Shown piece by piece: positions 14,301 to 51,355 of a stretch of 64,000 nucleotides of DNA. This DNA is from Nitrospinota bacterium (GTDB lineage Bacteria > Nitrospinota > Nitrospinia > UBA9942). The translations under genes were made by a program, and so were the position numbers. The stretch lies in the NCBI GenBank assembly GCA_016194325.1, contig JACQBS010000051.1:7855-71854 (forward strand), written 5' to 3'. The notes below the pieces were generated by a model that worked only from the letters and a program-made list of their open reading frames with translations, had not been told where the DNA came from and made no database searches. Every line of letters begins with the position of its first letter. The stretch's first letter is position 1.

Positions 14301-16635
14301 TTCTTCTGACCCGCCAGAATGTTATGTAGGATGTCATAATCCGAGGAGGCTCTATATGCAGACTGAGCCTGAGTCTGATATGGTAGATACGGTGGGCTCA
14401 GGAAGAGTGGATCCGATAGAGAACGCTCAGAGAGAAGCCGATCCAACATATGGCGATTCTGGTTACGGAAACAAATTTAACTGGACATGGTATTTTAATT
14501 CATCCGGAGTGCAGGGAGGGGCAGGAGGATTACCGAGGGATGAGAACCCTGATGTGCCATGTGCAAAATGTCATGACGCTCAGGGGACCCTTGTGCAGGG
14601 GAATGAGGATAGTCCATCTAAATATAAAGGCGTCAATTATATATCAGCCCATCCGCCAGACCCAACTAAACGGACCGACTGCCTTGTCTGCCATGATTAT
14701 AATAATTCAACAAAACCGCATAAAAAGGGGACACCCTATCTGAATAATAAAGATGGCGGTGCATCTATTGAATTTGATATTACAAATCCATCATCCCTTG
14801 AGCCATTCTGTCTCTCCTGCCATGATAGTAATGGCGCTACTGATGGCAATACTGCTACAGGAAATCCAAAGAGACCCTTCAGTAAAGAGACAGATGTATC
14901 CAATGAGGTTCCAGATGTAAAAGTAAGGTGGACAGGTGCTGCACACTCTGCAAATATCTCCTGTTTCGGGGATGGAGTGTCTAATGGCTGTCACGGCAAT
15001 CCGCACGGCTCTGGAAAACGGGCACTCCTTGCACCGTATAGTGAATCAGTAGGTGAAGACCAGAAATACTTCTGCTTCAACTGTCATGGAAATAATCGTG
15101 ACAGACTTGTCCTTGCACCGAATATACAGGACCAGATAGAGAAAAGGTCAGTTATCTATGGGAGTGATGGAAATCAATATCGTTGTATTTTAAGCCATAC
15201 ATCGGCAGCAAGTAATAAACCTATAACAGGGGCAAGCTGGGCGACTTATTGGGTGGCAACAGGTGTAGCAACAGGAAGTGATAACTGGGTTAGCGGAAAA
15301 AATTATACAGGTGGCAGCGGTCATCCGATACCTGCTGCCGGTGAGCCGTGGCTCCACAAGCGGAAAGAGTCCATAATCGTGTCTAATAGGCATTCAGAAT
15401 GTATTGACTGCCATGACCCTATGGGTGATAGGAGCACCCACAGGCTGCATTCGCGGAGATATGTGGATATAGATGGAAACCCATGGAATCCTAATAAAAA
15501 TTCAGTGGCATCAACACATCCTATGTGGGGAGGGGATTCAACTACAAACTATGTCCGACAGCCATATGTATATGAAGTGTGCTTCCGCTGTCATGGACCA
15601 AATTATGGAACATTCTTTAAAGATTATATGCCTTTCCCTCAAGTTGCAAAAGACAGGGTCGGGATGGATGGGCATTTCAGTGACAAGAGGAAGGAGTTTG
15701 ACCCTCGGTCTAACCAGTTTGCAGATTATCCCGCAAGCGGGAACCTCGGCGCAAATACAGCCTATCATCCTGTAGCTGCCCCGGGCAGAAATGCAACAGA
15801 CCCGCTTTACAGACAATTACAGGAGGCATTTGATTTAACATCTGCGAATGATTTAAAGTCACTCACTATCCAGTGTCCGGACTGCCATAATAATAATGTG
15901 TTGGGAACTGCTTCCACAGGCTTAAGGGGACCTGTAACCTACTCCAACCGTCGTATTACTGATAAAACACCTGCGATTGTAAATACTCCCAATACCTTCA
16001 GTAATACAGATAACAGGCAGGATGACAATAGGATAGGGCCACATGGCTCAACAAACAGAAGAATCTTAAGGGCGCCTTATAATACCAATGTTTATAACAC
16101 AAGAACGGAAAGAGGCAGTTATGGAACGGTAGGGGCAACATTTGGCAGCGGCGGTGCGAGAGATAACTTACAACTCTGTTTCCTCTGTCATAAAGAGTCT
16201 GTTTTATTAGAAACGGATGGCGGGGCAGCAGGGACAAACTTTGGAGGCACAGGTAATGGGTGGTGGACGGCAAACCTCCATGCAGAACATCTTTCTGCGT
16301 CAACTTACTCAGGCAGTGAAGGGGGACAGGCTGTCTGCCATGAGTGTCATCATAATGTCCATAGCAATGTAGAGGCACAGAATACCATTTATGGAGATGG
16401 GCTCGGCGGTATGCTCCCGCCTGATAATGAGGATGGAATCCTTGATGGCGTCTCATCCACACATCTATTGAACTTTGCCCCTTCAGTTCAGGGTGCTACT
16501 GCACTCAAGCCGAGGTGGTATTACGACGGACAGTATTACAGATGTGATATGTATTGTCACGGTGCGAATATGAATTATTGCTGGTATAAACATGGACAGG
16601 CAGGAAGCATATCACAGTGGTGTGAGGATGACTAA
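11392..16635 (+). CDS. Giant multihaem c-type cytochrome (20 canonical CXXCH + 2-3 CX3CH variants), secreted
   Basis: GTG start 9 nt after AGGAGG. The (LT)n-containing signal region is LGVTLALILTLTLTLFKAQGA. I counted 20 CXXCH: CSDCH, CMSCH, CSVCH, CKHCH, CMTCH, CKTCH x2, CMDCH, CQVCH, CPQCH, CKICH, CAKCH, CLVCH, CLSCH, CFNCH, CIDCH, CFRCH, CPDCH, CFLCH, CHECH. CYVGCH and CDMYCH are additional variants. Long haem-free beta-rich inserts occur between haem clusters. Confidence 0.85.
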   Translation: MKNLFSRDQGEKVKRKPVCPTGRKVWLGVTLALILTLTLTLFKAQGAIDPPHYDTSTTSPFYCSDCHKERTESDVPGLCMSCHNPAGRAKAKPFARTDQSTMGQGVVGEDTKGTTHRFDSEGLKYVKLWKPNNSTGKIKIAGGSMYSGDFSTQNEMEYEFEIVNPGDVGAATFKYRCRTRSKPQPTSSTNPFNTPVWDRDADWSGWTSAYTTAASVSLNDSICGGDKGISLSFENGSGSPNSFDAGTGGRVYVKLLNQPSNDNMKLRVMNNKINCSVCHNQHSMQLDRPYLRAGNVGNALCKHCHDDRDRSHYMQEMGTADDGTGDSSNQTTLQLVDISKNWTVNQWVGKQVYFQKNFRGVQAAVDNEEKNLTGTLTFTQGSATVTGVGTLFSTEISSLQFIRLSSSSKWYPVTSIGTNTSLTLSIPFEEATVTGNAMTSSFAGFYRKITSNTSNTLVLDGALNAKIDNGLRYRIVDTNNYGSHPVGIKYSQMDFDTRFNSDIKPLPLDDNGTPSDTSDDTVQCMTCHSPHFTHSVGTEGGAATSGTTTSLTDTTKSWTANSLVGYELRIRNEWTSGTSNQNPNWRKRRFITSNTANKVEWLDPLTIRSNPNDSSVMIDSPPSAGDVYEIVNTSGTNLTNGIGDGYILRKPNGYSNGYIRKYQNIDDDKVICKTCHKYKNHFGDETAGGYARSCMDCHTPHNTTNRFLLREVINNREVRIRPGDNYVNSSRTGVCQVCHTQTKHWRNDGSEPQAHYAEGCPQCHQHDSEERSWIYICKTCHGYPPVPKGTIVDKKGNIHTNINDSICTNTSDPNYAGPCAEYNTFNQNIPHSSYRIEDYDGGGGAHLVHVVGALQQFECKICHGHMGYGNEHGGSVGRKTPDRNNITFNFQLDYSFNERLETKLGYQTIDPPVYPKMMGVEVGTSATYMNRADATNGYGPGKKHIGSGATSNGGNNEDATTPSILGRAVTSSDPPECYVGCHNPRRLYMQTEPESDMVDTVGSGRVDPIENAQREADPTYGDSGYGNKFNWTWYFNSSGVQGGAGGLPRDENPDVPCAKCHDAQGTLVQGNEDSPSKYKGVNYISAHPPDPTKRTDCLVCHDYNNSTKPHKKGTPYLNNKDGGASIEFDITNPSSLEPFCLSCHDSNGATDGNTATGNPKRPFSKETDVSNEVPDVKVRWTGAAHSANISCFGDGVSNGCHGNPHGSGKRALLAPYSESVGEDQKYFCFNCHGNNRDRLVLAPNIQDQIEKRSVIYGSDGNQYRCILSHTSAASNKPITGASWATYWVATGVATGSDNWVSGKNYTGGSGHPIPAAGEPWLHKRKESIIVSNRHSECIDCHDPMGDRSTHRLHSRRYVDIDGNPWNPNKNSVASTHPMWGGDSTTNYVRQPYVYEVCFRCHGPNYGTFFKDYMPFPQVAKDRVGMDGHFSDKRKEFDPRSNQFADYPASGNLGANTAYHPVAAPGRNATDPLYRQLQEAFDLTSANDLKSLTIQCPDCHNNNVLGTASTGLRGPVTYSNRRITDKTPAIVNTPNTFSNTDNRQDDNRIGPHGSTNRRILRAPYNTNVYNTRTERGSYGTVGATFGSGGARDNLQLCFLCHKESVLLETDGGAAGTNFGGTGNGWWTANLHAEHLSASTYSGSEGGQAVCHECHHNVHSNVEAQNTIYGDGLGGMLPPDNEDGILDGVSSTHLLNFAPSVQGATALKPRWYYDGQYYRCDMYCHGANMNYCWYKHGQAGSISQWCEDD

Positions 16636-16639
16636 ATTT

Positions 16640-16761
16640 AGCAATGAGCAATGAGTGCTAAGCGATGAGTAAAAACTTATTGCTAATCACACATTATGAA
16701 ATTATGATTCGCAATTTATTATTTACATTGCTCATTGCTCATTGCTTATCACTCATTGCTT
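16640..16761 (+). repeat. Octamer-unit hairpin (GCAATGAG/CTCATTGC) with the gene start codon in its loop
   Basis: The left arm agcaatgagcaatgagtgctaagcgatgagt pairs with the 3' part of the right arm (ctcattgcttatcactcattgct) in about 21/23 positions. The loop contains gaaattATGATTCGCAATTT (ATG 16704). The right arm encodes LLIAHCLSLIAYA. Confidence 0.8.
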
Positions 16762-17531
16762 ATGCAAGTGAGATGGTTCTTATACCGGAGGGTAAGTTTA
16801 TAATGGGAAGTCGTGGAGACGGCGGAGATGAAGGTGTCTTAGGGGTGGATGTTGGGGTTGACCAGATTCCGCAAAGGGAGGTCTTCTTGAAGGCTTTTTA
16901 TATGGACAAATATGAGGTTACTGTCCAAGAGTATAAGGAGTTTGCAAAGGCAACAGGTCATCCCCTTCCCGGTCTTTTGACAGGTGAAGACAACCCCCTA
17001 ACCCCCTTTATTAAGGGGGAATTTAATGTGAAGGAGTGGGCAGTTAAATATCCTCCCATAGAGGATGATTTTCCAATCAATGATGTAACTTATATGGATG
17101 CGGAGGCTTATTGTTCATGGGCAGGTAAAAGGCTGCCTACTGAAGAGGAATGGGAGAAGGCTGCGAGGGGGAAAGATGGGAGGTTATACCCATGGGGAAA
17201 TGATAAAACAATTGGAAAGGCGAATACAATAGAGTGGTCAAAGGAAAAGGTGGCAGCGGTTGCTGTCGGGAGTTTTCCGACAGATATAAGCCCTTATGGA
17301 GTTTACGATATGGCTGGAAATATCATGGAATGGACATCTTCATGGTATGAGGCATATCCGGGGAGCAAACTAAAACGAGCACAATTTGGAAAAAAGTATA
17401 AGGTGATGAAAGGCGGGGCATGGATGGGACCAATGACACCCTTTGCACGGGGAGCACATCGGTATGCAGCAGGTGTTACAGAGAGAAACCATCATCCCCA
17501 TTTTGGATTTAGATGTGCAAAGGATATATAA
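16704..17531 (+). CDS. Secreted FGE-sulfatase-fold (SUMF1/formylglycine-generating-enzyme family) protein, catalytic Cys pair absent
   Basis: MVLIPEGKFIMGS...YMDKYEVTVQEYKEF...VTYMDAEAYCSWAGKRLPTEEEWEKAARG.DGRLYPWGN...YGVYDMAGNIMEWT...GFRCAKD. No GGS(Y/F)LCH.SYC motif. The ORF opens at ATG 16665 within the repeat arm. ATG 16704 (MIRNLL...) is preferred by analogy with 17660 and 19169. Confidence 0.8.
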   Translation: MIRNLLFTLLIAHCLSLIAYASEMVLIPEGKFIMGSRGDGGDEGVLGVDVGVDQIPQREVFLKAFYMDKYEVTVQEYKEFAKATGHPLPGLLTGEDNPLTPFIKGEFNVKEWAVKYPPIEDDFPINDVTYMDAEAYCSWAGKRLPTEEEWEKAARGKDGRLYPWGNDKTIGKANTIEWSKEKVAAVAVGSFPTDISPYGVYDMAGNIMEWTSSWYEAYPGSKLKRAQFGKKYKVMKGGAWMGPMTPFARGAHRYAAGVTERNHHPHFGFRCAKDI

Positions 17532-17536
17532 AATTA

Positions 17537-17643
17537 GCCACGGAGACACGGAGGCACAGAGTTTTTAAAAGCGGTTTACACGGTTTGAACAGTTTAAACG
17601 GTTTAATCTGGTTTATATCTCTGTGTCTCTGTGACTCTGTGGC
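17537..17643 (+). repeat. Tandem-unit hairpin element, CACAGAG/CTCTGTG family with CGGTTTAAA-repeat loop (copy 2)
   Basis: Left arm gccacggagacacggaggcacagag; right arm tctctgtgtctctgtgactctgtggc, about 21/25 complementary. The loop aaaagcggtttacacggtttgaacagtttaaacggtttaatctggtt is homologous to the loop of 1715..1816. Confidence 0.85.
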
Positions 17644-17659
17644 AAGAAAGGGTGAAATT

Positions 17660-18697
17660 ATGATTCGTAAATTATTACTTAAAACAGTGTCAGTGAATAG
17701 TGTCAGTGACAGGAAAAAAATACTAACATTGATACTTACACTTACACTTACACTGACACTGTCACTTGCATCAGCAAGTGATATGCTCCTCATCCCTGCC
17801 GGAGAATTTATTATGGGGAGCGGGGCTGTTCAGGGAACAGACCCTTACACTGACACTCACACTTTTAAAGAGGGGATTGACTATGGAGTGGATGAGATTC
17901 CACAGAGGAAGGTTTTTGTCAAAGACTTTTATATTGACAGATTTGAAGTAACAAATGCCGAATACAAAGAATATCTTAAATATCTCATTAAGAACAGGGT
18001 GAGGCTTCCATTTTATGAGGATATAGGTATCCCTATCCCGGAGGATTGGAGATATCTAAGAAGCAGTGTCAAAGAGTCAGAGAGTCAAAGTGTCAAAGTA
18101 AAAAATACTGATACTGACACTGACACTTATACTTTTAAAGAAGGCATGGAATATCATCCTGTAAGTGATGTGGATTGGTATATGGCAAATAGTTATTGTC
18201 AATGGAAAGGCAAGAGATTACCTACAGAAAATGAGTGGGAGAAGGCTGCAAGGGGGACAGACGGCAGGCTCTATCCATGGGGGAATGAAGAGAATAAAGG
18301 ATATGCGAATACCAGAAAAAGCAGTGTCAAAGAGTCAGAGAGTCAAAGTGTCAAAGTAAAAAATACTGACACTGACACTAACACTGACACTGGCACTGTG
18401 GCGGCAGGCTTTTTTAAAAAAGATGTTAGTCCTTATGGTGTCCATGATATGGGGGGGAATGTGGCTGAATGGACATCATCTTTATATCGTCCATATCCGG
18501 GAAGTCCTGTGGCAGAAAGAGAGGCATTTAAGAGAGAGTTCTATGTTGTCAGGGGCGGGTCCTATTTAATTAATGCCCATGAATCGGCAAGGGCATCGGC
18601 GAGATACTATATGCTCCCGACCCGTATGCCAAGGGCAGCAGATGCCTGGCATGGTGACGGGATGGTGGGGTTCAGATGTGCAAAAGATAAAGAATAG
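17660..18697 (+). CDS. Secreted FGE-sulfatase-fold protein carrying two in-frame hairpin-repeat insertions
   Basis: The leader is MIRKLLLKTVSVNSVSDRKKILTLILTLTLTLTLSLASA. FGE-family motifs: LLIPAGEFIMGS, RFEVTNAEYKEY, WYMANSYCQWKGKRLPTENEWEKAARGTDGRLYPWGN, YGVHDMGGNVAEWT, GFRCAKD. GGSYLINAHESARASARYY replaces the FGE motif GGS.LCH.SYC..YR, so both Cys are lost. The listed ORF start at 17513 is read-through of element 17537..17643. Confidence 0.8.
   Translation: MIRKLLLKTVSVNSVSDRKKILTLILTLTLTLTLSLASASDMLLIPAGEFIMGSGAVQGTDPYTDTHTFKEGIDYGVDEIPQRKVFVKDFYIDRFEVTNAEYKEYLKYLIKNRVRLPFYEDIGIPIPEDWRYLRSSVKESESQSVKVKNTDTDTDTYTFKEGMEYHPVSDVDWYMANSYCQWKGKRLPTENEWEKAARGTDGRLYPWGNEENKGYANTRKSSVKESESQSVKVKNTDTDTNTDTGTVAAGFFKKDVSPYGVHDMGGNVAEWTSSLYRPYPGSPVAEREAFKREFYVVRGGSYLINAHESARASARYYMLPTRMPRAADAWHGDGMVGFRCAKDKE
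18065..18136 (+). repeat. In-frame hairpin insertion 1 in FGE-like CDS (AGTCAAAG arm / A-loop / CTGACAC arm)
   Basis: Sequence: agtgtcaaagagtcagagagtcaaagtgtcaaag-taaaaaat-actgatactgacactgacacttatactttt. It is 72 nt (24 codons) and encodes SVKESESQSVKVKNTDTDTDTYTF. Confidence 0.85.
18323..18398 (+). repeat. In-frame hairpin insertion 2 in FGE-like CDS
   Basis: The left arm and loop (agcagtgtcaaagagtcagagagtcaaagtgtcaaagtaaaaaatactga) are identical to insertion 1, which lies 258 nt upstream. The right arm is actgacactgacactaacactgacactggcactg. It encodes SVKESESQSVKVKNTDTDTNTDTGT. Confidence 0.85.
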
Positions 18698-19160
18698 TAT
18701 CAAAGTGTCAGAGTATCAGAGTGTCAGAGTTTTTTACTTTGACACTATATAAAAGTGTCAGAGGTAATATGGAAGAGAAAAAGGGTTACAAAAAACTGAG
18801 GGTATGGGAAAAGGCACATCAACTTGCAATGGAAATTTATAATACTACTAAAATATTTCCAAAAGAAGAGTTGTATGGATTAACTTCACAGATTAGAAGA
18901 GCAGCGTTTTCAGTTCCTTTAAATATAGTAGAGGGACATGCAAGTATTAGCAAGAAAGAATTTTTGAATTTTCTTAATATGGCAAATAGGTCCCTTGTTG
19001 AGACAGAATATCTGTTAGAGATAGTGAGAGAATTAAGCTTTTTAAATGAACCCGAGTATCAAAGGTTAGAGAAAATACGCAGTGAAGTTGCAGTTATATT
19101 AAACGCTTTTCGAAAAAGTATCAAACTTTGATACTTTGACACTCTGACACTTTGACACTT
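18696..19160 (+). repeat. Inverted octamer-repeat arms bracketing the four-helix-bundle gene (gene-in-loop hairpin cassette)
   Basis: The left arm is agtatcaaagtgtcagagtatcagagtgtcagag (18696..18729), followed by the mini-hairpin ctttgacact/aagtgtcagag (18737..18762). The right arm ctttgatactttgacactctgacactttgacactt (19126..19160) overlaps the stop codon. Confidence 0.85.
18769..19131 (+). CDS. Four-helix-bundle protein (23S rRNA intervening-sequence protein family; Avd-like fold)
   Basis: MEEKKGYKKLRVWEKAHQLAMEIYNTTKIFPKEELYGLTSQIRRAAFSVPLNIVEGHASISKKEFLNFLNMANRSLVETEYLLEI matches the family pattern (L.VW.KA....iY..t..FPk.E.ygL.sQirRAa.S...NI.EG). The ORF opens at GTG 18721 in the repeat; ATG 18769 after GAGGT is preferred. 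Confidence 0.85.
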   Translation: MEEKKGYKKLRVWEKAHQLAMEIYNTTKIFPKEELYGLTSQIRRAAFSVPLNIVEGHASISKKEFLNFLNMANRSLVETEYLLEIVRELSFLNEPEYQRLEKIRSEVAVILNAFRKSIKL

Positions 19161-19168
19161 TAAAACTT

Positions 19169-22100
19169 ATGATTCGCAAATTGCTGCAAATATTACTATT
19201 TACACTGACACTGACACTGTCACTTTCCCCTGTGTTTGCTACGATCTCTACTGTTGACTCACAGGGTGGTGCGTATAGCTCTATTAAGCTCCAATCTGAT
19301 GGTAAGCCTGCGGTTGCCTACTTTGACCATAAAACCGGGGAGTTGAGGTATTCTTACTGGACAGCGAATGGGACAGTGAATCAATGGATTCGCACTGTCG
19401 TGGAAGAAAAAGGTGTAACAGGGTATGTCTCCCTATGGTTAGGCAGCGGAAATAAGCCCTACATAAGCTACTATCACAACATAAGTAAGAATAACAGCAC
19501 AGGCTCAGATATAAACGGTAAATACGGCAACCACATGGTAGGTGCACTCAAATATGCCTATTGTTCTACTACAACCTGTCTTACACCTGAGGACTGGACA
19601 AAGGTAACTGTGGCAGAGATTGGTCAATCACAAAACGGGCATACTGGAGGGTTTACATCCCTTGCCTTTGATTCGTCAGGAAATCCGAGGATAGCCTATT
19701 ATGACTTTTCTCATAAGATAGATGCCAATGACATAAAGAAAGGTGCATTAAAACTTGCCTATTGTGACAGTAATTGCAGCAGTAGTAGTAGCTGGTCAAT
19801 AAGCACAGTTGATACTGATGGCGGCAGGTCTGCCTCTATGGTTATAAATTCCAGCAATAAGGTGATGTTCAGCTATGATGCTGATGAAGTGCAGACAGTA
19901 AGGTATGCGGAAGGCTCACCCCCATTTTCATCATGGACTAAAGCGGATATAGATACAATTGTAAACACGAGTAATTTATTCAGGGATACATCAATAGCAA
20001 TTCATCCAACCACGGGGAAGCCGAGGCTTATATATCAATATCAAGGGCAGGCTGACTATGGAACAGGCGGTACTTGTAGTTCTTGTACCCGGTCTGTCAG
20101 CGATCGATATTATGGTTACAATACTCCCGGGATTATAACCCGTCGTGATGCATACTATGCCTATTGTGATGCTGCTGATTGCACAGTTTCTACAAACTGG
20201 ACAAAAAATGTTGTTTTAGAGAGTAATGAGAGATATTTGAGGGGATATACATCTTCAATTAAGGTTGGGAGTGACGGTCCAAAGATTGCGTATCATTACT
20301 GGGGGCATAGGGCAAATAGTGCTTATTCTATTGGGCTTACTCAGAACCTCCAATATGTTAACTGTACTACCGCGAATTGTTCAAGTAAGAACATCTCCAC
20401 TATTGATTCAACAGAGAACACAGGGCTTTATTCTTCCATTGCACTTGATTCCTCTAACAATCCTTTGATTTCTTATTACGATTATGATTCAAACCAATTA
20501 AAGCTTTACCATCCGACAAACTCTTATACTGATGCTGGTATTACAGCAGATACCCGTGCAAGCGATACATCCAATGGAGGCACAGGACTACAGAGTGGGG
20601 ATAGCTTCAAAATCCTCTTTTCAGGTGCTACTAATGGAGCAGCATGCTCTATTACTACTGCTAATATAGACAGTATCCTCAAACTCTCAAATGGTCATTC
20701 CTGGGTATGCTCGGGGAGCAGTATAACAGCTACATGGAGTAACACCTACAATACAAACGATACACTAACAATCACGGTTACTTCCGGCACAGGTGGCTGT
20801 GTGCCTACAGTGGAGGTTGGGGATAGGGTATCTCTGAATGGAACCTGTATATTAGATGGGAGTGGTAATCCTATTATTTTACAGACAGAGATAAGGGGTA
20901 GCACCGGAGTCAAGGTTCCAACCGGCGCTGTAGCATATTGGAAGATGGATGAAGGTGCGAAGCTTACTGCCTGGGACAGTGTAGGTCCACATAATGCATC
21001 TTTGAACAATGGTGTTACATGGACAACAGGTCTTAGTGGCTCTGGACTCTCTCTTGATGGCAGTGATGACTATCTGATTGTCCCCGGAAACCCTGTTGAT
21101 TTAGATATTAAAGGGGGGAAGATTACCATTGAGGCATGGCTCAAGCCGAATAATTTATTTAGCACAAATTATACTGTCCTCAGTAAAGAGAATAGTTATG
21201 CAATGACATCAAATGGTCAGTGTGCCATAGAAACATCCGATACAGGAACAACATGGGCATGGTATGGGGGAGCGAGTATGAGCAGATTGCAAAGAAATTA
21301 TTCAGGAAATAAGGATATATGGAGACAGGTTGTCTGCACATACGATGGAACAACACAGAAGGTTTATATAGATGGCATCTTTGATGGAAGTCTATCACGG
21401 ACAGGAACTGTAAGCGCCTCAAATTATCCTTTTGTAATGGGGAGGAGGGAACTGTCAACATGGCCTACGAACAGAGGATATGATAGTAATGGTTGTCCTG
21501 GTACCGTCAGCGGTTGCAGTGGTGAAAACTACTGGGGGACAAATTATTACAATGGGAAAATGGATGAGGTTGTTATATATAATACTGCACTTTCACAGAC
21601 TGAAATTTTAAATCGTTTCAGCTCATTACCTGCCCAGTTTGAGAGGGCAGATGCAAATGATACATCTATGAGTGGCTATGGGCTTCAGGCAGGGGATACT
21701 ATAGCAATAAGGTTCACGAATGAGACAAATGCCCCTACAATAAATGCAGGAAATATAAATACAGTCCTCTCAGTTACTGGAAAGACATGGAAGGATGGGA
21801 GTGGAAATATAGGTAGTGCAGTATGGAGTCAAACAAGATTCACTAATGATACACTATTAATCACATTAAGCACAGCAACCAGTGCCCCCACAGTTGCAAC
21901 AGGAGATATAATAACCCTATCGGGAGGAATAATAAAAGAGAAAACCGGGATCAACTCTATTACAGGCTCCACTAAAATCAGGGGAAGTTATGATTTGAAT
22001 GGTGCTGTTGCATACTGGAATCTTGACGAGAGCAGCGGGGATCCATCAGACAGTGTCGGGCAGTATAATACCGGGACACTTGCTTGTGTTGGTACGGGTT

Positions 22101-46649: not shown

Positions 46650-47607
<958 letters not shown>

Positions 47608-47618
<11 letters not shown>

Positions 47619-48510
47619 CAAAAGTGTCAGTGACAGTGTCAGGAAAAAAATACTTACAGTTGTATTGACACTTACACTTACACTACCAATTGTTGTTAAT
47701 GCGGAAGAGGGAAAGGATGCAGAAGCACCTATAGAAATGGTCTTCGTTAAAGGGGGTTGTTTCCAGATGGGTGACCCCTTTGGAGATGGGGAGAATGATG
47801 AAGTGCCAGTCCATGAGGTTTGCGTGAATGATTTTTATATCGGCAAGTATGAAGTGACAGTAGAAGAGTTTGGAAAGTTTGTGAAAGAGACAGGTTACAG
47901 CACTGATGCAGAAAAAATGGGCGGTTGTTTTGGAAAGGTTGGTTACAAGTGGAGAAAAAGAAAGGATTTTAACTGGAGTAAGGTGGATTTCCCTCAGACA
48001 GATAGACACCCCGCAGTTTGTATAAGCTATAATGATGCAAATGAATTTATGAAATGGCTGAATAAAAAATTTGTGGTGAGCAAAACGAATTCATCGGGTG
48101 GTAAATACCGTCTGCCTACAGAGGCTGAATGGGAATATGCAGAGAGGAGCGGCGGTAAGGCGGAAAAATGGGCAGGGACAAATAACGAGTCGGAGGTTTC
48201 GGATTATGTATGGTATGATAAAAATTCCGGAGGTAAAACGCATCCTGTGGGTCAGAAAAAACCCAACGGCTTGGGTTTATACGATATGAGCGGCAATGTA
48301 TGGGAGTGGGTAGAGGATTGGTATGAAGTTGATTATTATGATAAAACTCCTAAAACCAATCCGTTAAATGCGAAGCCCAGCCATGCAAAGTCAATGCGCA
48401 GTGGTCCATGGAGCGTTCCTTTGCATGCAGTAAGGGTCTTTTATCGCGGCAGCGATATACCATATAGTATATGCGACGGACTCGGTTTTCGGGTTGCAAA
48501 GACCCCTTGA
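47608..48510 (+). CDS. Secreted FGE-sulfatase-fold protein (second subfamily)
   Basis: The leader is MQDDKSVSDSVRKKILTVVLTLTLTLPIVVNA. Motifs: MVFVKGGCFQMGD, FYIGKYEVTVEEFGKFVKETGY, HPAVCISYNDANEFMKWLN, YRLPTEAEWEYAERSGG, GLYDMSGNVWEWVEDWY, GFRVAKTP. The start overlaps the upstream stop by 11 nt; the listed ORF start at 47497 is out-of-frame read-through of the upstream gene. Confidence 0.8.
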
Positions 48511-48627
48511 AGGATTATAAAAATAATGGAACACGAATTACACGAAAAAGGTGTCAGTGAACAGTGTCAGTGTCAGAAAAAATACTTACATATTCCCCCC
48601 TTAATAAAGGGGGTGAGGGGGTTGTTA

Positions 48628-49491
48628 ATGAGAAGGGTTGCACTCATACTTACACTCACACTTACACTTATTTCAGATAGTGTAAACGCTAAGGAATGCA
48701 CACTGCTGGAGCCTGAGGCACTGAAAAGGGCTATAGAAAATAAATCTATATATGAGATGATTATATTTGATGTTCGTCCGCGGTATACTCCTGACTCGAA
48801 GCGTAGGTTTGATCTTGAGACTAATGTGAAGCGTATCCCGTCGAGTCTCTGGGCGCCTCTTGAAAAGATTGAACTGGACCTGGTTGGTAAGGTGGAGGAA
48901 CTTATTGATAGGAATGTTATTCTGGTGGGGGAGAATACAGAGTCCGCAGAAAGTGTATGCAGGTTTATGATGAAAAAAGATTATGGAATTCGTAATATAT
49001 ATGTCTTAAAAGGGGGTATGGAGAAATGGGATGGTCCTATTAAAGATGATATTACAAAAGTTGAATGTGCGATGATTACCTCCAGAGAGTTGATGAATAT
49101 GATGAAATCTGGAAAAAATGTTGAGATAGTTGACAAACGTTTAGCAGATGAATATCATGAGGGACATATACCAGGTGCAGTATTACGACCTGGCGAAATG
49201 AGACAGCCTTCACTAAAATATCTTATAACAAAACGGGAATTGCGTATAAAAAGGGCGCGGGAGAATACTATCGTCGTCTATGTGTATGATAATGAAGTTC
49301 AAACCATGCTGGATTGTAAGTATGAAAAATATTTCTCACATCCTGCATGGTATCCTGATGGTAATAATGATAATAAGAAAGCAAAAAAAGATGTTTATGT
49401 GCTTAGAGGCGGAATGAAGGTATGGGAAGGAGAAGTAAAAAAAGATTATCTGGAAATATTGAAAAAGAGAGTTAAGGAGAAACTGAAATGA
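48628..49491 (+). CDS. Secreted tandem rhodanese-homology-domain protein lacking the active-site Cys
   Basis: The signal peptide is MRRVALILTLTLTLISDSVNA. There are two rhodanese-like units: IIFDVRP...ILVGENTESAES...VLKGGMEKW and VEIVDKRLADEYHEGHIPGAV...VVYVYDNEVQT...VLRGGMKVW. The positions of the catalytic C-x5-R loop carry no Cys. The ORF-track start at 48526 translates repeat elements. Confidence 0.7.
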   Translation: MRRVALILTLTLTLISDSVNAKECTLLEPEALKRAIENKSIYEMIIFDVRPRYTPDSKRRFDLETNVKRIPSSLWAPLEKIELDLVGKVEELIDRNVILVGENTESAESVCRFMMKKDYGIRNIYVLKGGMEKWDGPIKDDITKVECAMITSRELMNMMKSGKNVEIVDKRLADEYHEGHIPGAVLRPGEMRQPSLKYLITKRELRIKRARENTIVVYVYDNEVQTMLDCKYEKYFSHPAWYPDGNNDNKKAKKDVYVLRGGMKVWEGEVKKDYLEILKKRVKEKLK

Positions 49492-49580: not shown

Positions 49581-50378
49581 ATGAAAAAATTATTATATAT
49601 AATTTCAGCCTTTTTCTTTGTGTCCTTCGTGTTCTTCGTGGTTAATCAGGTTTTTATCCCTTCATCATCGGAGGCATCGGAATGTATCCTTATTGAGCCT
49701 GAAGATATGAAGATGAGATATGAAGATAGAGCAATTCTTTTAAATGATATGTTCATATTTGATGTTCGCCCTTATCTGATAGCCAATAAGGGGAAACGTA
49801 TTCCGATGTCTATGGCTATTACTTATGAGTCTCTTGAAAATGAGCTTACTTATGAGATAGAAGTGTGGAAAGGGAAAGATATCTATCTGGTAGGTGAAGA
49901 TACTGAATCAACAGAGAATTTTTGCAAAGTCATGCTGAAGAAAAATTATCCAATTGATGATATTTATGTTTTAAAGGGCGGAATGAAGTCATGGAATGGA
50001 CCTGTTATTGCGGGGAAGTTTGAGGATGTGATATGTGAAGAGATAGATTTGCAGGATGTATTGAACTTGAAAGATTCGGAAAGAAAAGTTGAATTTGTTG
50101 ATATGCGTTCACTAAAAGATTATGAGAATGGGCATATACCCGGTGCAGTAGGTGAGGGTGCATTCAGCCGGGAAAATCTATGCTTAACAGGTGTATTCTC
50201 AAGGGCGGTACGGGAGGATGGTCTTGTGGTTTTTGTAGGATATACCGAGCCAGAAACTTTGCATAGATGCAGGGTGCTGAAATGGGCAGTTGGATATAAC
50301 AATATGCATGCCCTTAAAGGAAACATGAAGGCATGGAAAGGGTTGCTGGAAAAGGGTAGATTCGCAGGTCGTTATTAA
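49581..50378 (+). CDS. Secreted tandem rhodanese-homology-domain protein lacking the active-site Cys (paralogue)
   Basis: AGGAGG RBS. The signal peptide is MKKLLYIISAFFFVSFVFFVVNQVFIPSSSEA. Motifs: FIFDVRP...IYLVGEDTESTEN...VLKGGMKSW and VEFVDMRSLKDYENGHIPGAV...VVFVGYTEPET...ALKGNMKAW. Confidence 0.7.
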   Translation: MKKLLYIISAFFFVSFVFFVVNQVFIPSSSEASECILIEPEDMKMRYEDRAILLNDMFIFDVRPYLIANKGKRIPMSMAITYESLENELTYEIEVWKGKDIYLVGEDTESTENFCKVMLKKNYPIDDIYVLKGGMKSWNGPVIAGKFEDVICEEIDLQDVLNLKDSERKVEFVDMRSLKDYENGHIPGAVGEGAFSRENLCLTGVFSRAVREDGLVVFVGYTEPETLHRCRVLKWAVGYNNMHALKGNMKAWKGLLEKGRFAGRY

Positions 50379-50440
50379 GAGAGTCAAAGAGAGACTGAAT
50401 TGGTTAAGGTTTTGACTATTTGATATTTATTCTTTCGGCT

Positions 50441-51355
50441 ATGAAGAAATATGGAATACTTTTAGTGATATTTTTTTTCTACTCCATTTCCCCGCAGGTT
50501 GTAAGCGGAGAAGATATGGTTTTTGTCAAAGGCGGGTGTTTTCAGATGGGAGATACTTTTGGAGATGCAGAGAGTAAAAATAGAGAGAGCAAAGAAAAAC
50601 CTGTGCATAAGGAAGGTGACGAAAAGCCTGTGCATGAGGTATGTGTGGATGATTTTTATATAGGGAAGTATGAAGTAACAGTGGGTGAGTTCAGGGAATT
50701 TTTAAATACTACAGGATACATGACGGAAGATGAAATTGGAGATGGCTGTTTTGTCTTTGTAGGAAGAGAATGGAAAAAGGACAAAAGCAGGAATTGGCGT
50801 AATCCTGGTTTTTTACAGGATGATACTCATCCAGTATGCTGTGTATCATGGAATGATGCTGTAGCTTATGCTGAGTGGTTTTCAGGTAAGCTTGCCCCTG
50901 CAGGCAGTAAGCAGGGGACAGGCTTGTCCTCGCAAGCTATAAGCGGGGAAAAGAGGTATCGTCTGCCAACAGAGGCGGAGTGGGAGTATGCGGCAAGGAG
51001 CGGAGGGAAAAGGGAGAAATATTCTGGTGGTAACGATTTAGACAGTGTAGCGTGGTATGCTAACAACTCAGGCAGTAAAACCCATCCGGTAGGACAGAAA
51101 AATCCAAATGTATTGGGATTATATGACATGACAGGGAATCTATGGGAATGGTGTTCAGACTGGTATGATGAGAAATATTACAGTAATAGTCCAAAGGATA
51201 ATCCTAAAGGTGCTGTTAGCGGAATTTATCATGTTTTGCGCGGCGGTTCATGGTACAATGTTTCGCATCGCTTAGGAACTTTTGTCCGCGCCCAGCGCGA
51301 GCCTGAGAAGCGGGCTGACGGCAGTGGGTTTCGGCTTGCAGCCTCCGTGAAATAA
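50441..51355 (+). CDS. Secreted FGE-sulfatase-fold protein (second subfamily) with tandem stem-loop insertion
   Basis: The signal peptide is MKKYGILLVIFFFYSISPQVVSG. Motifs: MVFVKGGCFQMGD, FYIGKYEVTVGEFREFLNTTGY, HPVCCVSWNDAVAYAEWFS, YRLPTEAEWEYAARSGG, GLYDMTGNLWEWCSDWY, LRGGSW, GFRLA. Relative to the paralogue at 47608, the insert GKLAPAGSKQGTGLSSQAISGEK is extra. Confidence 0.8.
   Translation: MKKYGILLVIFFFYSISPQVVSGEDMVFVKGGCFQMGDTFGDAESKNRESKEKPVHKEGDEKPVHEVCVDDFYIGKYEVTVGEFREFLNTTGYMTEDEIGDGCFVFVGREWKKDKSRNWRNPGFLQDDTHPVCCVSWNDAVAYAEWFSGKLAPAGSKQGTGLSSQAISGEKRYRLPTEAEWEYAARSGGKREKYSGGNDLDSVAWYANNSGSKTHPVGQKNPNVLGLYDMTGNLWEWCSDWYDEKYYSNSPKDNPKGAVSGIYHVLRGGSWYNVSHRLGTFVRAQREPEKRADGSGFRLAASVK
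50891..50949 (+). repeat. Two adjacent copies of the 27-nt stem-loop element CTTGYCCYYGCA-N7-GCRGGGA, in frame in the CDS
   Basis: The two copies are cttgcccctgcaggcagtaagcagggga (50891..50918) and cttgtcctcgcaagctataagcgggga (50923..50949), with stems cccctgc/gcagggg and tcctcgc/gcgggga. Other copies lie at 38056..38083, 46117..46143, 53578..53604 and 54839..54865. Confidence 0.9.

Follow-up and report, generated by a model that had tools for sequence, protein, structure and literature searches.

The stretch analyzed here, hereafter the window, comprises 64,000 nucleotides of a contig from a Nitrospinota bacterium (assembly GCA_016194325.1, contig JACQBS010000051.1, positions 7,855 to 71,854 of the forward strand). 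One of its genes, which encodes a secreted protein of the FGE fold, contains a twin: two identical 50-nucleotide sequences, each part of a hairpin-forming cassette that is translated with the rest of the gene. The twin sequences are likely to be copies of a single cassette resembling the Rickettsia palindromic elements (RPEs), which would occupy two long-standing loop slots of the protein and would have been homogenized by local copying. The event is better described as the replacement, or homogenization, of one occupied slot by the other than as a fresh double insertion, because both slots are occupied in all nine orthologous loci examined and the hybrid form of the cassette, with arms of two different repeat periods, is unique to these two sites in the genome. 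The twin is one instance of a lineage-wide phenomenon and not an isolated oddity.

Organization of the cassettes

The features of the host gene are as follows (all on the + strand).

17660..18697, host gene, secreted FGE-fold (SUMF1/EgtB/PvdO-family) protein of 345 residues, identified by PF03781 and orthologs
17685..17765, N-terminal hairpin cassette, translated in frame as the signal peptide; predicted RNA folding energy -27.5 kcal/mol, z = -3.5
17837..17884, site 0, half cassette: (CTGACA)-type right arm and non-repeat flank TTTAAAGAGGG (TFKEG); 79% identity to 18107-18154
18058..18133, site-1 cassette: left arm 18065-18098, loop TAAAAAAT 18099-18106, 6-mer right arm 18107-18133
18316..18398, site-2 cassette: left arm 18323-18356, loop 18357-18364, 6-mer right arm 18365-18398
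Cassette-encoded peptide segment: SSVKESESQSVKVK

The window contains exactly two copies of the 50-mer AGCAGTGTCAAAGAGTCAGAGAGTCAAAGTGTCAAAGTAAAAAATACTGA, at positions 18062-18111 and 18320-18369 of the + strand, whereas none of 100 dinucleotide-preserving shuffles contained a match. This bears out a preliminary description of the sequence, which had reported identical 50-nucleotide cores 258 nucleotides apart within one FGE-like gene. Ungapped similarity between the copies reaches 76 nucleotides at 93% identity (18058-18133 versus 18316-18391). The two copies share one frame of the host open reading frame (ORF), as had been stated, and they encode the peptides SSVKESESQSVKVKNTDTDTDTYT and SSVKESESQSVKVKNTDTDTNTDTGT; the frame stays open across both of them.

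The left arm of each copy is purine-rich and consists of four 8-nucleotide units, AGTGTCAA AGAGTCAG AGAGTCAA AGTGTCAA, followed by AG. It is connected by the A-rich loop TAAAAAAT to a right arm built of 6-nucleotide units (ACTGAY/ACTGAC...) of the (CTGACA)n type, the number of which differs between the two copies. The cores had been described as being followed by (CTGACA)n units; the units are indeed present, but together with the cores they form imperfect hairpins, with predicted RNA folding energies of -19.6 kcal/mol (z = -2.3) at site 1 and -28.7 kcal/mol (z = -4.1) at site 2. Their unequal periods prevent the arms from pairing perfectly.

An earlier gene segment had been reported to contain only the right arm, and this piece, CTTACACTGACACTCACACTTTT at 17844-17866, was confirmed. 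Its similarity to site 1 includes the flank TTTAAAGARGG (TFKEG), which natively follows site 1. The three repeat segments listed for the gene in the preliminary description are thus real, but there is a fourth, the complete hairpin in the signal peptide. It has two 6-mer arms, of which the left one encodes VSVNSVSD and the (CTKACA)n right one ILTLILTLTLTLTLS, joined by a loop encoding RKK; the orthologs have other repeat families at this N-terminal position. An Rfam 15 scan of positions 16000-20000 returned three sub-threshold matches at the level of chance, none of them on the cassettes.

The FGE-like host protein

The start codon was set at ATG 17660 (MIRKLLL), matching the orthologs. The gene product matches the Pfam family PF03781 (FGE-sulfatase) with E = 1.9e-51 over profile positions 2-255 of 255. 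The AlphaFold model of the protein, calculated from an alignment of 78 homologs, has a mean predicted local distance difference test score (pLDDT) of 80 and a predicted template modeling score (pTM) of 0.80, and its low-confidence stretches are solely residues 1-40, 51-80, 131-160, and 221-240, which correspond to the leader, site 0, site 1, and site 2. A Foldseek search with the model gave a probability of 1.00 for FGE, pFGE, CalU17, EgtB, and OvsA, which identifies the fold as that of FGE. Sites 1 and 2 would be flexible surface loops of a functional secreted protein.

True FGEs have a catalytic pair of cysteines in the C-terminal region before the GFRC motif, Cys336 and Cys341 in the human enzyme. 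The stretch of the host protein from RGGS to GFRC, YLINAHESARASARYYMLPTRMPRAADAWHGDGMV, contains zero cysteines. Therefore, the protein is FGE-like and not a true FGE, and its enzymatic role is putative. The preliminary description had called the gene otherwise diverged; if decay was meant, this does not hold, since the ratio of nonsynonymous to synonymous substitution rates (dN/dS) of the gene core is 0.06-0.17 across orthologs and the core is under strong purifying selection.

The window contains five FGE-sulfatase paralogs, including those at 16665-17531, 46650-47618, 47617-48510, and 50420-51355, which are interleaved with two rhodanese-domain proteins (48526-49491 and 49581-50378). Several of these paralogs have leaders derived from repeats and carry inserts in differing loops. 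A 19-nucleotide string, AAATTATGATTCG(C/T)AAATT, encoding MIR(K/N)L, begins three consecutive genes (16699-16717, 17655-17673, and 19164-19182); it is absent elsewhere in the genome and is kept by orthologs in other genomes (MIRKLL). The common start ATGATTCGCAAATT (MIRK) was considered as a genome-wide leader cassette and rejected, as it is limited to the three adjacent genes.

Cassettes in orthologous loci

Approximately 27 database proteins are 59-80% identical to the host protein overall, and DNA was examined for nine orthologous loci. These share one gene order, in which a multihaem cytochrome gene is followed by an FGE paralog, the host gene, and the gene of a giant LamG protein. The orthologs in this conserved synteny have 65-80% protein identity, and outside the variable segments their DNA is 84-94% identical, which corresponds to a core difference of 6-16%.

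All nine orthologous loci have an insert at both site 1 and site 2; however, the inserts belong to unrelated families (identity 0.3-0.6). They include GAAGA../CTCAAC.., CAGTAAG/CTACTGC, and CACCAGA/TGGTGAC arrays as well as GC-rich hairpins without tandem units. The property of folding is retained despite the change of sequence: the RNA fold z-score is below -2 in 16 of the 18 cassettes (median z -4.8), whereas one of 36 core windows used as controls reaches this level. A cassette without folding is that at site 2 of locus L084 (z = +0.7). By contrast, short loops are found at both sites in the distant homologs P0029, P0035, and P0037 and in the upstream paralog, which marks the cassettes as insertions with respect to the ancestral protein. 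The term 'twin insertions' used in the preliminary description is correct in this evolutionary sense, but the cassettes did not arrive in an empty gene.

The content of the slots is exchanged rapidly. Near-identical cassettes are present at site 1 of loci L082 and L086 (74 of 75 nucleotides) and at site 2 of loci L083 and L090 (86 of 87 nucleotides), while the cores of the genes differ by 10-16%; whole cassettes must therefore be exchanged or acquired faster than the cores diverge. Two orthologs, P0026 and P0031, lack most of site 1. Their sequence reads RYPEKT-VSQLLS, in which the interior of the hairpin has been cleanly lost relative to P0014 (EKTEDEKMGRWEDEKKLSISITSQPLNLSTSQLLS), so cassettes also get deleted between their arms.

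The host-gene hybrid can be followed in the close relatives. In L081, with a synonymous divergence (dS) of the core of 0.49, the site-1 hybrid is identical at 45 of 50 positions, in line with the divergence of the core, and site 2 holds a different family. In L082, the closest ortholog (core dS 0.18), both sites hold other cassettes, but the half cassette of site 0 is retained together with the TFKEG flank. This half cassette is confined to the host gene and P0002/L082/L089, and the other orthologs read G-R-M/L-GIDYG at the corresponding position. The hybrid was found at site 2 in no ortholog examined.

Twins are also found elsewhere. In L085, an exact tract of 96 nucleotides is common to site 1 and site 2 and belongs to a different, nested 6-mer family, and in L084 the two sites have approximately 40 nucleotides in common. 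Among 18 non-redundant orthologs, 3-mers are shared between site 1 and site 2 within the same protein in eight of 18 cases versus 12% between proteins (permutation P = 0.0002). Concerted evolution of the two slots thus recurs, with different repeat families.

The hybrid junction had no exact match in a scan of metagenome contigs. Protein-based scans of genome and metagenome contigs retrieved mainly distant FGE homologs and two further orthologs.

Repeat families and the reading-frame filter

The genome is a metagenome-type assembly of 3.1 Mb in 175 contigs and is 89.9% complete. The 34-nucleotide left arm of the twin matches an intergenic hairpin on contig C22 at 34 of 34 positions, and a BLAST search places it at no fewer than 51 loci in the genome, approximately 50 of them beyond C22 at 88-97% identity. 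The canonical element of this family consists of ATAA, four 8-mers, a short loop, four complementary 8-mers (CTYTGAYA), and CTTTTAT, and it is usually positioned directly 3' of a stop codon, ahead of the ribosome-binding site of the next gene. The canonical hairpin pattern with 8-mers in both arms has 100 matches in the genome, counting both strands. The dispersed family is estimated at approximately 50-100 hairpins, every one of them intergenic.

This family belongs to a much larger set. Analysis with Tandem Repeats Finder (TRF) identified 1321 tracts of 6-12-nucleotide units with a score of at least 40, compared with 46 in a third-order Markov simulation, and 274 inverted pairs of tandem tracts, which are mostly intergenic. 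Pairing of arms based on TRF is blind to the twin hybrid, the arms of which have unequal periods, and hybrids were therefore counted by explicit patterns. Cassette families of the orthologs also occur as dispersed repeats in the studied genome. It is proposed that selfish hairpin repeats with arms of tandem 6-10-nucleotide units, normally intergenic, form a genus-wide pool.

Arrays of (CTGACA)n with at least three units number 27 in the genome, of which 12 are in the window (P = 7e-14) and four in the 1-kb host gene (P = 2e-10). The distribution of the two arm types follows from their stop codons. The canonical right arm contains one TGA per 8 nucleotides, and three units therefore close all three reading frames; accordingly, all 100 of the 8/8 hairpin matches are closed in every frame. 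The left arm of 8-mers is open in all three frames. A (CTGACA)n arm has TGA in one frame only, and the frames reading LT.. and TD.. are open. Nineteen of the 27 arrays lie inside long ORFs, where they read LTLT at N-termini and TDTD internally. The coding copies pair an 8-mer left arm with a (CTGACA)n right arm because only stop-free versions survive in genes. The hybrid of an 8-mer left and a 6-mer right arm is present exactly twice in 3.1 Mb, as the two twin copies, both read through by the host gene. This restriction speaks for a single origin followed by local copying and not for two hits by a common mobile form. A candidate for a third coding copy, the (CTGACA)n array 'TDTDTDTY' on contig C13, was rejected; it is intergenic and located upstream of a response-regulator gene.

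Origin of the twin

The exact identity of the copies, in a gene whose core differs from those of the orthologs by several percent and more, and the five mismatches in 50 positions of the L081 element agree with the earlier suggestion that the copying was recent. The routes offered at that time were insertion, duplication, or gene conversion. Gene conversion fits best, and two new insertions agree poorly with a hybrid that has no other copy in the genome.

The history of the gene may be reconstructed most economically as follows. The hybrid would have arisen a single time, at site 1, prior to the separation from the lineage of L081. Its right end, together with 11 nucleotides of native flank, would have been copied from site 1 to site 0 in an event similar to the later one that produced the twin, and the lineage of L082 would subsequently have swapped out its own site-1 cassette. 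According to this analysis, the sole possible source of the site-0 piece in L082 is a site-1 cassette of the (CTGACA)n type. In the studied lineage, site 1 would then have overwritten the left arm and loop of the cassette resident at site 2. The copying may have proceeded by gene conversion over a short tract or by a template switch during replication, anchored in the common (CTGACA)n arm. The identity of the 50-mers stops inside the (CTGACA)n array, as expected of a conversion tract anchored in shared repeats. The site-2 copy is probably the younger one, copied from site 1, because in L081 the hybrid is confined to site 1. The recurrence of twins and the clustering of (CTGACA)n arrays indicate that short-range copying between neighboring hairpins is repeated in this lineage.

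Several points weigh against this account. The direction of copying from site 1 to site 2 depends on one informative ortholog, L081, and no near-identical sister strain showing site 2 before conversion was found in the genome and metagenome searches. The unequal numbers of right-arm units fit a conversion that ended within the array and the copying of a whole element followed by slippage alike. The replacement of cassettes by unrelated families between orthologs is inexplicable by homology-dependent conversion alone, so a second process must exist. The conservation of hairpins across orthologs could reflect a function at the level of RNA or DNA and not selfishness. Finally, the correctness of the assembly and the variation in the population are judged from indirect arguments.

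An active mobile element similar to MITEs (miniature inverted-repeat transposable elements) that inserted twice, independently and very recently, is an unlikely origin of the twin. The high copy number of the dispersed left arm, including the perfect intergenic copy, would suit such an element, and the near-identical cassettes of orthologs with diverged flanks suggest real mobility. However, the form that was inserted is the hybrid, which is found nowhere else in the genome, and sites 1 and 2 were already occupied in all orthologs. Moreover, there is no consistent target-site duplication at the two sites, and no transposase-bearing parent was found in the genome, where the only gene-bearing copy of the family carries a PF05635 gene.

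It is similarly improbable that the hairpins are retained for a function, such as pausing or RNase processing of mRNA, formation of a DNA cruciform, or diversification of loop peptides, with the twin as a selected matched pair. The potential to form a hairpin is kept at both sites in the nine orthologous loci despite the change of sequence, sites 1 and 2 of one gene tend toward one family, and the proteins that host such cassettes in the window are secreted. Nevertheless, the copies are identical at every synonymous position, which indicates copying and not convergence. The site-1 hairpin is weak, as the 8-mer and 6-mer arms pair poorly; the site-2 cassette of L084 is unfolded; most of site 1 is lost in P0026 and P0031; and no Rfam family matches the cassettes. 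Selfish hairpins would yield equal structural conservation by construction.

There is very little chance that one copy is an assembly artifact produced by a repeat-induced mis-join or a strain chimera. The assembly is of the metagenome type, fragmented, incomplete, and very rich in short repeats, which makes such errors conceivable. However, the common stretch is only 50-67 nucleotides long. This is below the normal read length and the final k-mers of a short-read assembly, which argues against the artifact. Furthermore, the unique in-frame flanks of the copies match different conserved parts of the FGE domain, and independent assemblies of orthologs place cassettes at both sites, some of them with twins. 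Judged by these indirect arguments, the twin is real.

Internal duplication of a 258-nucleotide block of the gene carrying the cassette can be dismissed: the copies are direct repeats and their spacing is a multiple of three, but the similarity extends no further than the cassettes, and their flanks at the two sites do not align with each other. In alignments with paralogs and solved structures, the two sets of flanks fall on different regions of the FGE domain.

Neighboring hairpins and possible drivers

The two slots lie in a region that contains further hairpins, one of which may be related to the cassettes.

18696..19167, + strand, hairpin of the 8-mer family enclosing a PF05635 gene; arms 18696-18746 and 19117-19167, gene 18769-19131

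This hairpin lies between the FGE-like gene and a gene encoding 5498 residues, and its inverted repeats I1-I6 are up to 91% complementary to the left arms of the cassettes. It is possible that it is a donor or a relative of the cassette arms. The enclosed gene belongs to the PF05635 family (23S_rRNA_IVP/bAvd-like, four-helix-bundle; E = 2.3e-36) and is missing from the orthologous loci. Approximately nine PF05635 genes are present in the genome, and most of them lie in a hairpin loop between inverted arrays whose unit sequence differs from gene to gene. The correspondence of one PF05635 gene to one repeat family, in analogy to RAYT/REPIN, was rejected; the arm families range from 1 to 63 loci, and the PF05635 genes are therefore not simple 'masters' of the repeats.

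In the orthologous loci, the intergenic slot after the host gene is taken by other hairpins, which are empty or hold a PDDEXK_3 gene. PDDEXK_3 (PF13366) genes occupy the loops of CCACAG(G/A)TAAACACAGATGAACACAG hairpins in L085 (2054-2434) and L087 (3569-3949), and in L086 the hairpin of this family is empty at the corresponding site. In L084 (5034-5732), a (GTCATTG)n hairpin whose loop measures 130 nucleotides fills the slot that follows the FGE-like gene, and a small PemK-toxin gene pair comes next.

No transposase linked to the 8-mer family was found in the genome, the two Y1_Tnp genes of which are unrelated to it. The only one of the two with a strong hit, which is IS200-like (C138:3397-3759, 155.7 bits), is flanked by GC-rich hairpins of the GCCCTTCAGGGCGGGG type and not by 8-mer or 6-mer arrays. 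The involvement of a RAYT was rejected, as the hairpins at the ends of this gene are unrelated.

The loop, signal-peptide, and intergenic sites might conceivably be maintained landing pads for structure-directed copy-and-replace, although this must be considered speculative and rather doubtful. A nuclease or nucleic-acid-binding protein encoded in some of the hairpin loops (PF05635 four-helix-bundle or PDDEXK_3/GxxExxY) would recognize hairpin or cruciform DNA and trigger repair from another hairpin. If this were true, the process would constitute homing-like, hairpin-targeted variation of proteins in bacteria that rewrites the loops and leaders of secreted proteins, and its preference for short range would explain the twins.

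Other hairpins were observed in the window. The one at 17537-17645, between two FGE paralogs, is very stable (-56.3 kcal/mol, z = -9.5) and has arms of (CACGGAGA)n/(TCTCTGTG)n and a 55-nucleotide loop whose units resemble (AAACGGTTT); the orthologous loci hold a family of the CTGTGTTCATCTGTGG type at this position. Another, (AGCAATGA)n/(TCATTGCT)n at 16640-16760 (-49.1 kcal/mol, z = -5.9), extends over the start codon (16665) of the upstream FGE paralog, and its right arm encodes LLIAHCLSLIA, the hydrophobic core of the signal peptide. A (CACGAAT)n/(ATTCGTG)n hairpin at 35690-35850 is positioned directly before the gene of a Uma2-family (PF05685) putative endonuclease (35873-36403).

Implications

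Selfish palindromes in frame with genes are known mostly from Rickettsia and from scattered cases of MITEs. Fixed slots in a conserved protein, the hairpin content of which turns over completely among close relatives while the property of forming a hairpin is kept, are undescribed in the literature found. The same applies to the concerted evolution of two slots in one gene and to a frame rule according to which the spacing of TGA, every 8 or every 6 nucleotides, sets which arms enter coding sequences. The frame rule accounts for the LTLT peptides of signal peptides and the TDTD peptides of loops. The locus provides a tractable natural system for studying the construction and reconstruction of protein loops and export signals from repeat DNA. 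It also serves as a warning to annotators that low-complexity segments of this type in the metagenome-assembled genomes of this lineage are real features and not errors.

Comparison with known systems

Long stems around PF05635 genes are known from the intervening sequences of 23S rRNA in Coxiella and Leptospira, which contain an S23p/PF05635 ORF inside the stem (PMC4990558). The hairpin at 18696-19167 shares this layout, and its arms belong to the 8-mer family of the cassette left arms; however, it is located outside rRNA. Unlike the intervening sequences, which reside in a helix of 23S rRNA and are cut out of the transcript by RNase III, the cassettes of the FGE-like gene are within a protein-coding gene with no rRNA nearby, do not contain an ORF, and, judging from their sequence, would be translated and not excised. 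In the mitochondria of Nematomorpha, long perfect inverted repeats are present in functional protein-coding genes, and both arms are translated (PMC6649704). Those palindromes are perfect and lie in conserved regions of proteins, whereas the hairpins described here are imperfect, derived from repeats, inserted in variable loops, and rapidly replaced.

The cassettes resemble intragenic MITEs and REP-type repeats (ERIC, BOX, Correia, QMITE1; PMC10969869) as well as the REPIN/RAYT system in that they are small, non-autonomous, high-copy hairpins, mostly intergenic, with occasional in-frame fusions. The hallmarks of these systems differ from what was found in the gene and the genome. In place of the target-site duplication of a MITE, AAGAAG is present on both sides at site 1, with nothing comparable at site 2. 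No autonomous parent insertion sequence with matching terminal inverted repeats was detected, the PF05635 hairpin being the only gene-bearing copy of the 8-mer family, and no RAYT gene is flanked by the same palindromes. In contrast to MITE and REP systems, the spread observed here is short-range copying between neighboring slots.

The closest analogs are the RPEs, dispersed palindromes of approximately 100 nucleotides that occur between genes and in frame in unrelated functional genes, where they contribute an extra peptide segment at fold-compatible positions, and for which no transposase of their own is known (Ogata et al. 2000, 2002; PMC10969869). The likeness consists in a dispersed palindrome family that is also found between genes, at 51 or more loci for the left arm, and in the in-frame insertion into tolerant loops of a functional gene. 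The resemblance to RPE-1 to RPE-10 is one of mode of action, and homology is unlikely given the tandem-unit arms and the different lineage, the relatives being labelled Nitrospinae/Nitrospinota. Unlike RPEs, the cassettes have arms of tandem 6-10-nucleotide units and belong to many unrelated families per genome, their coding copies are hybrids forced by the stop codons of the canonical arm, and the same two loop positions are filled by different families in nine loci, with the two slots of a gene being made alike. The homogenization of slots within one gene and the stop-codon rule that shapes the coding copies are what this locus adds specifically to the known in-frame palindromes.

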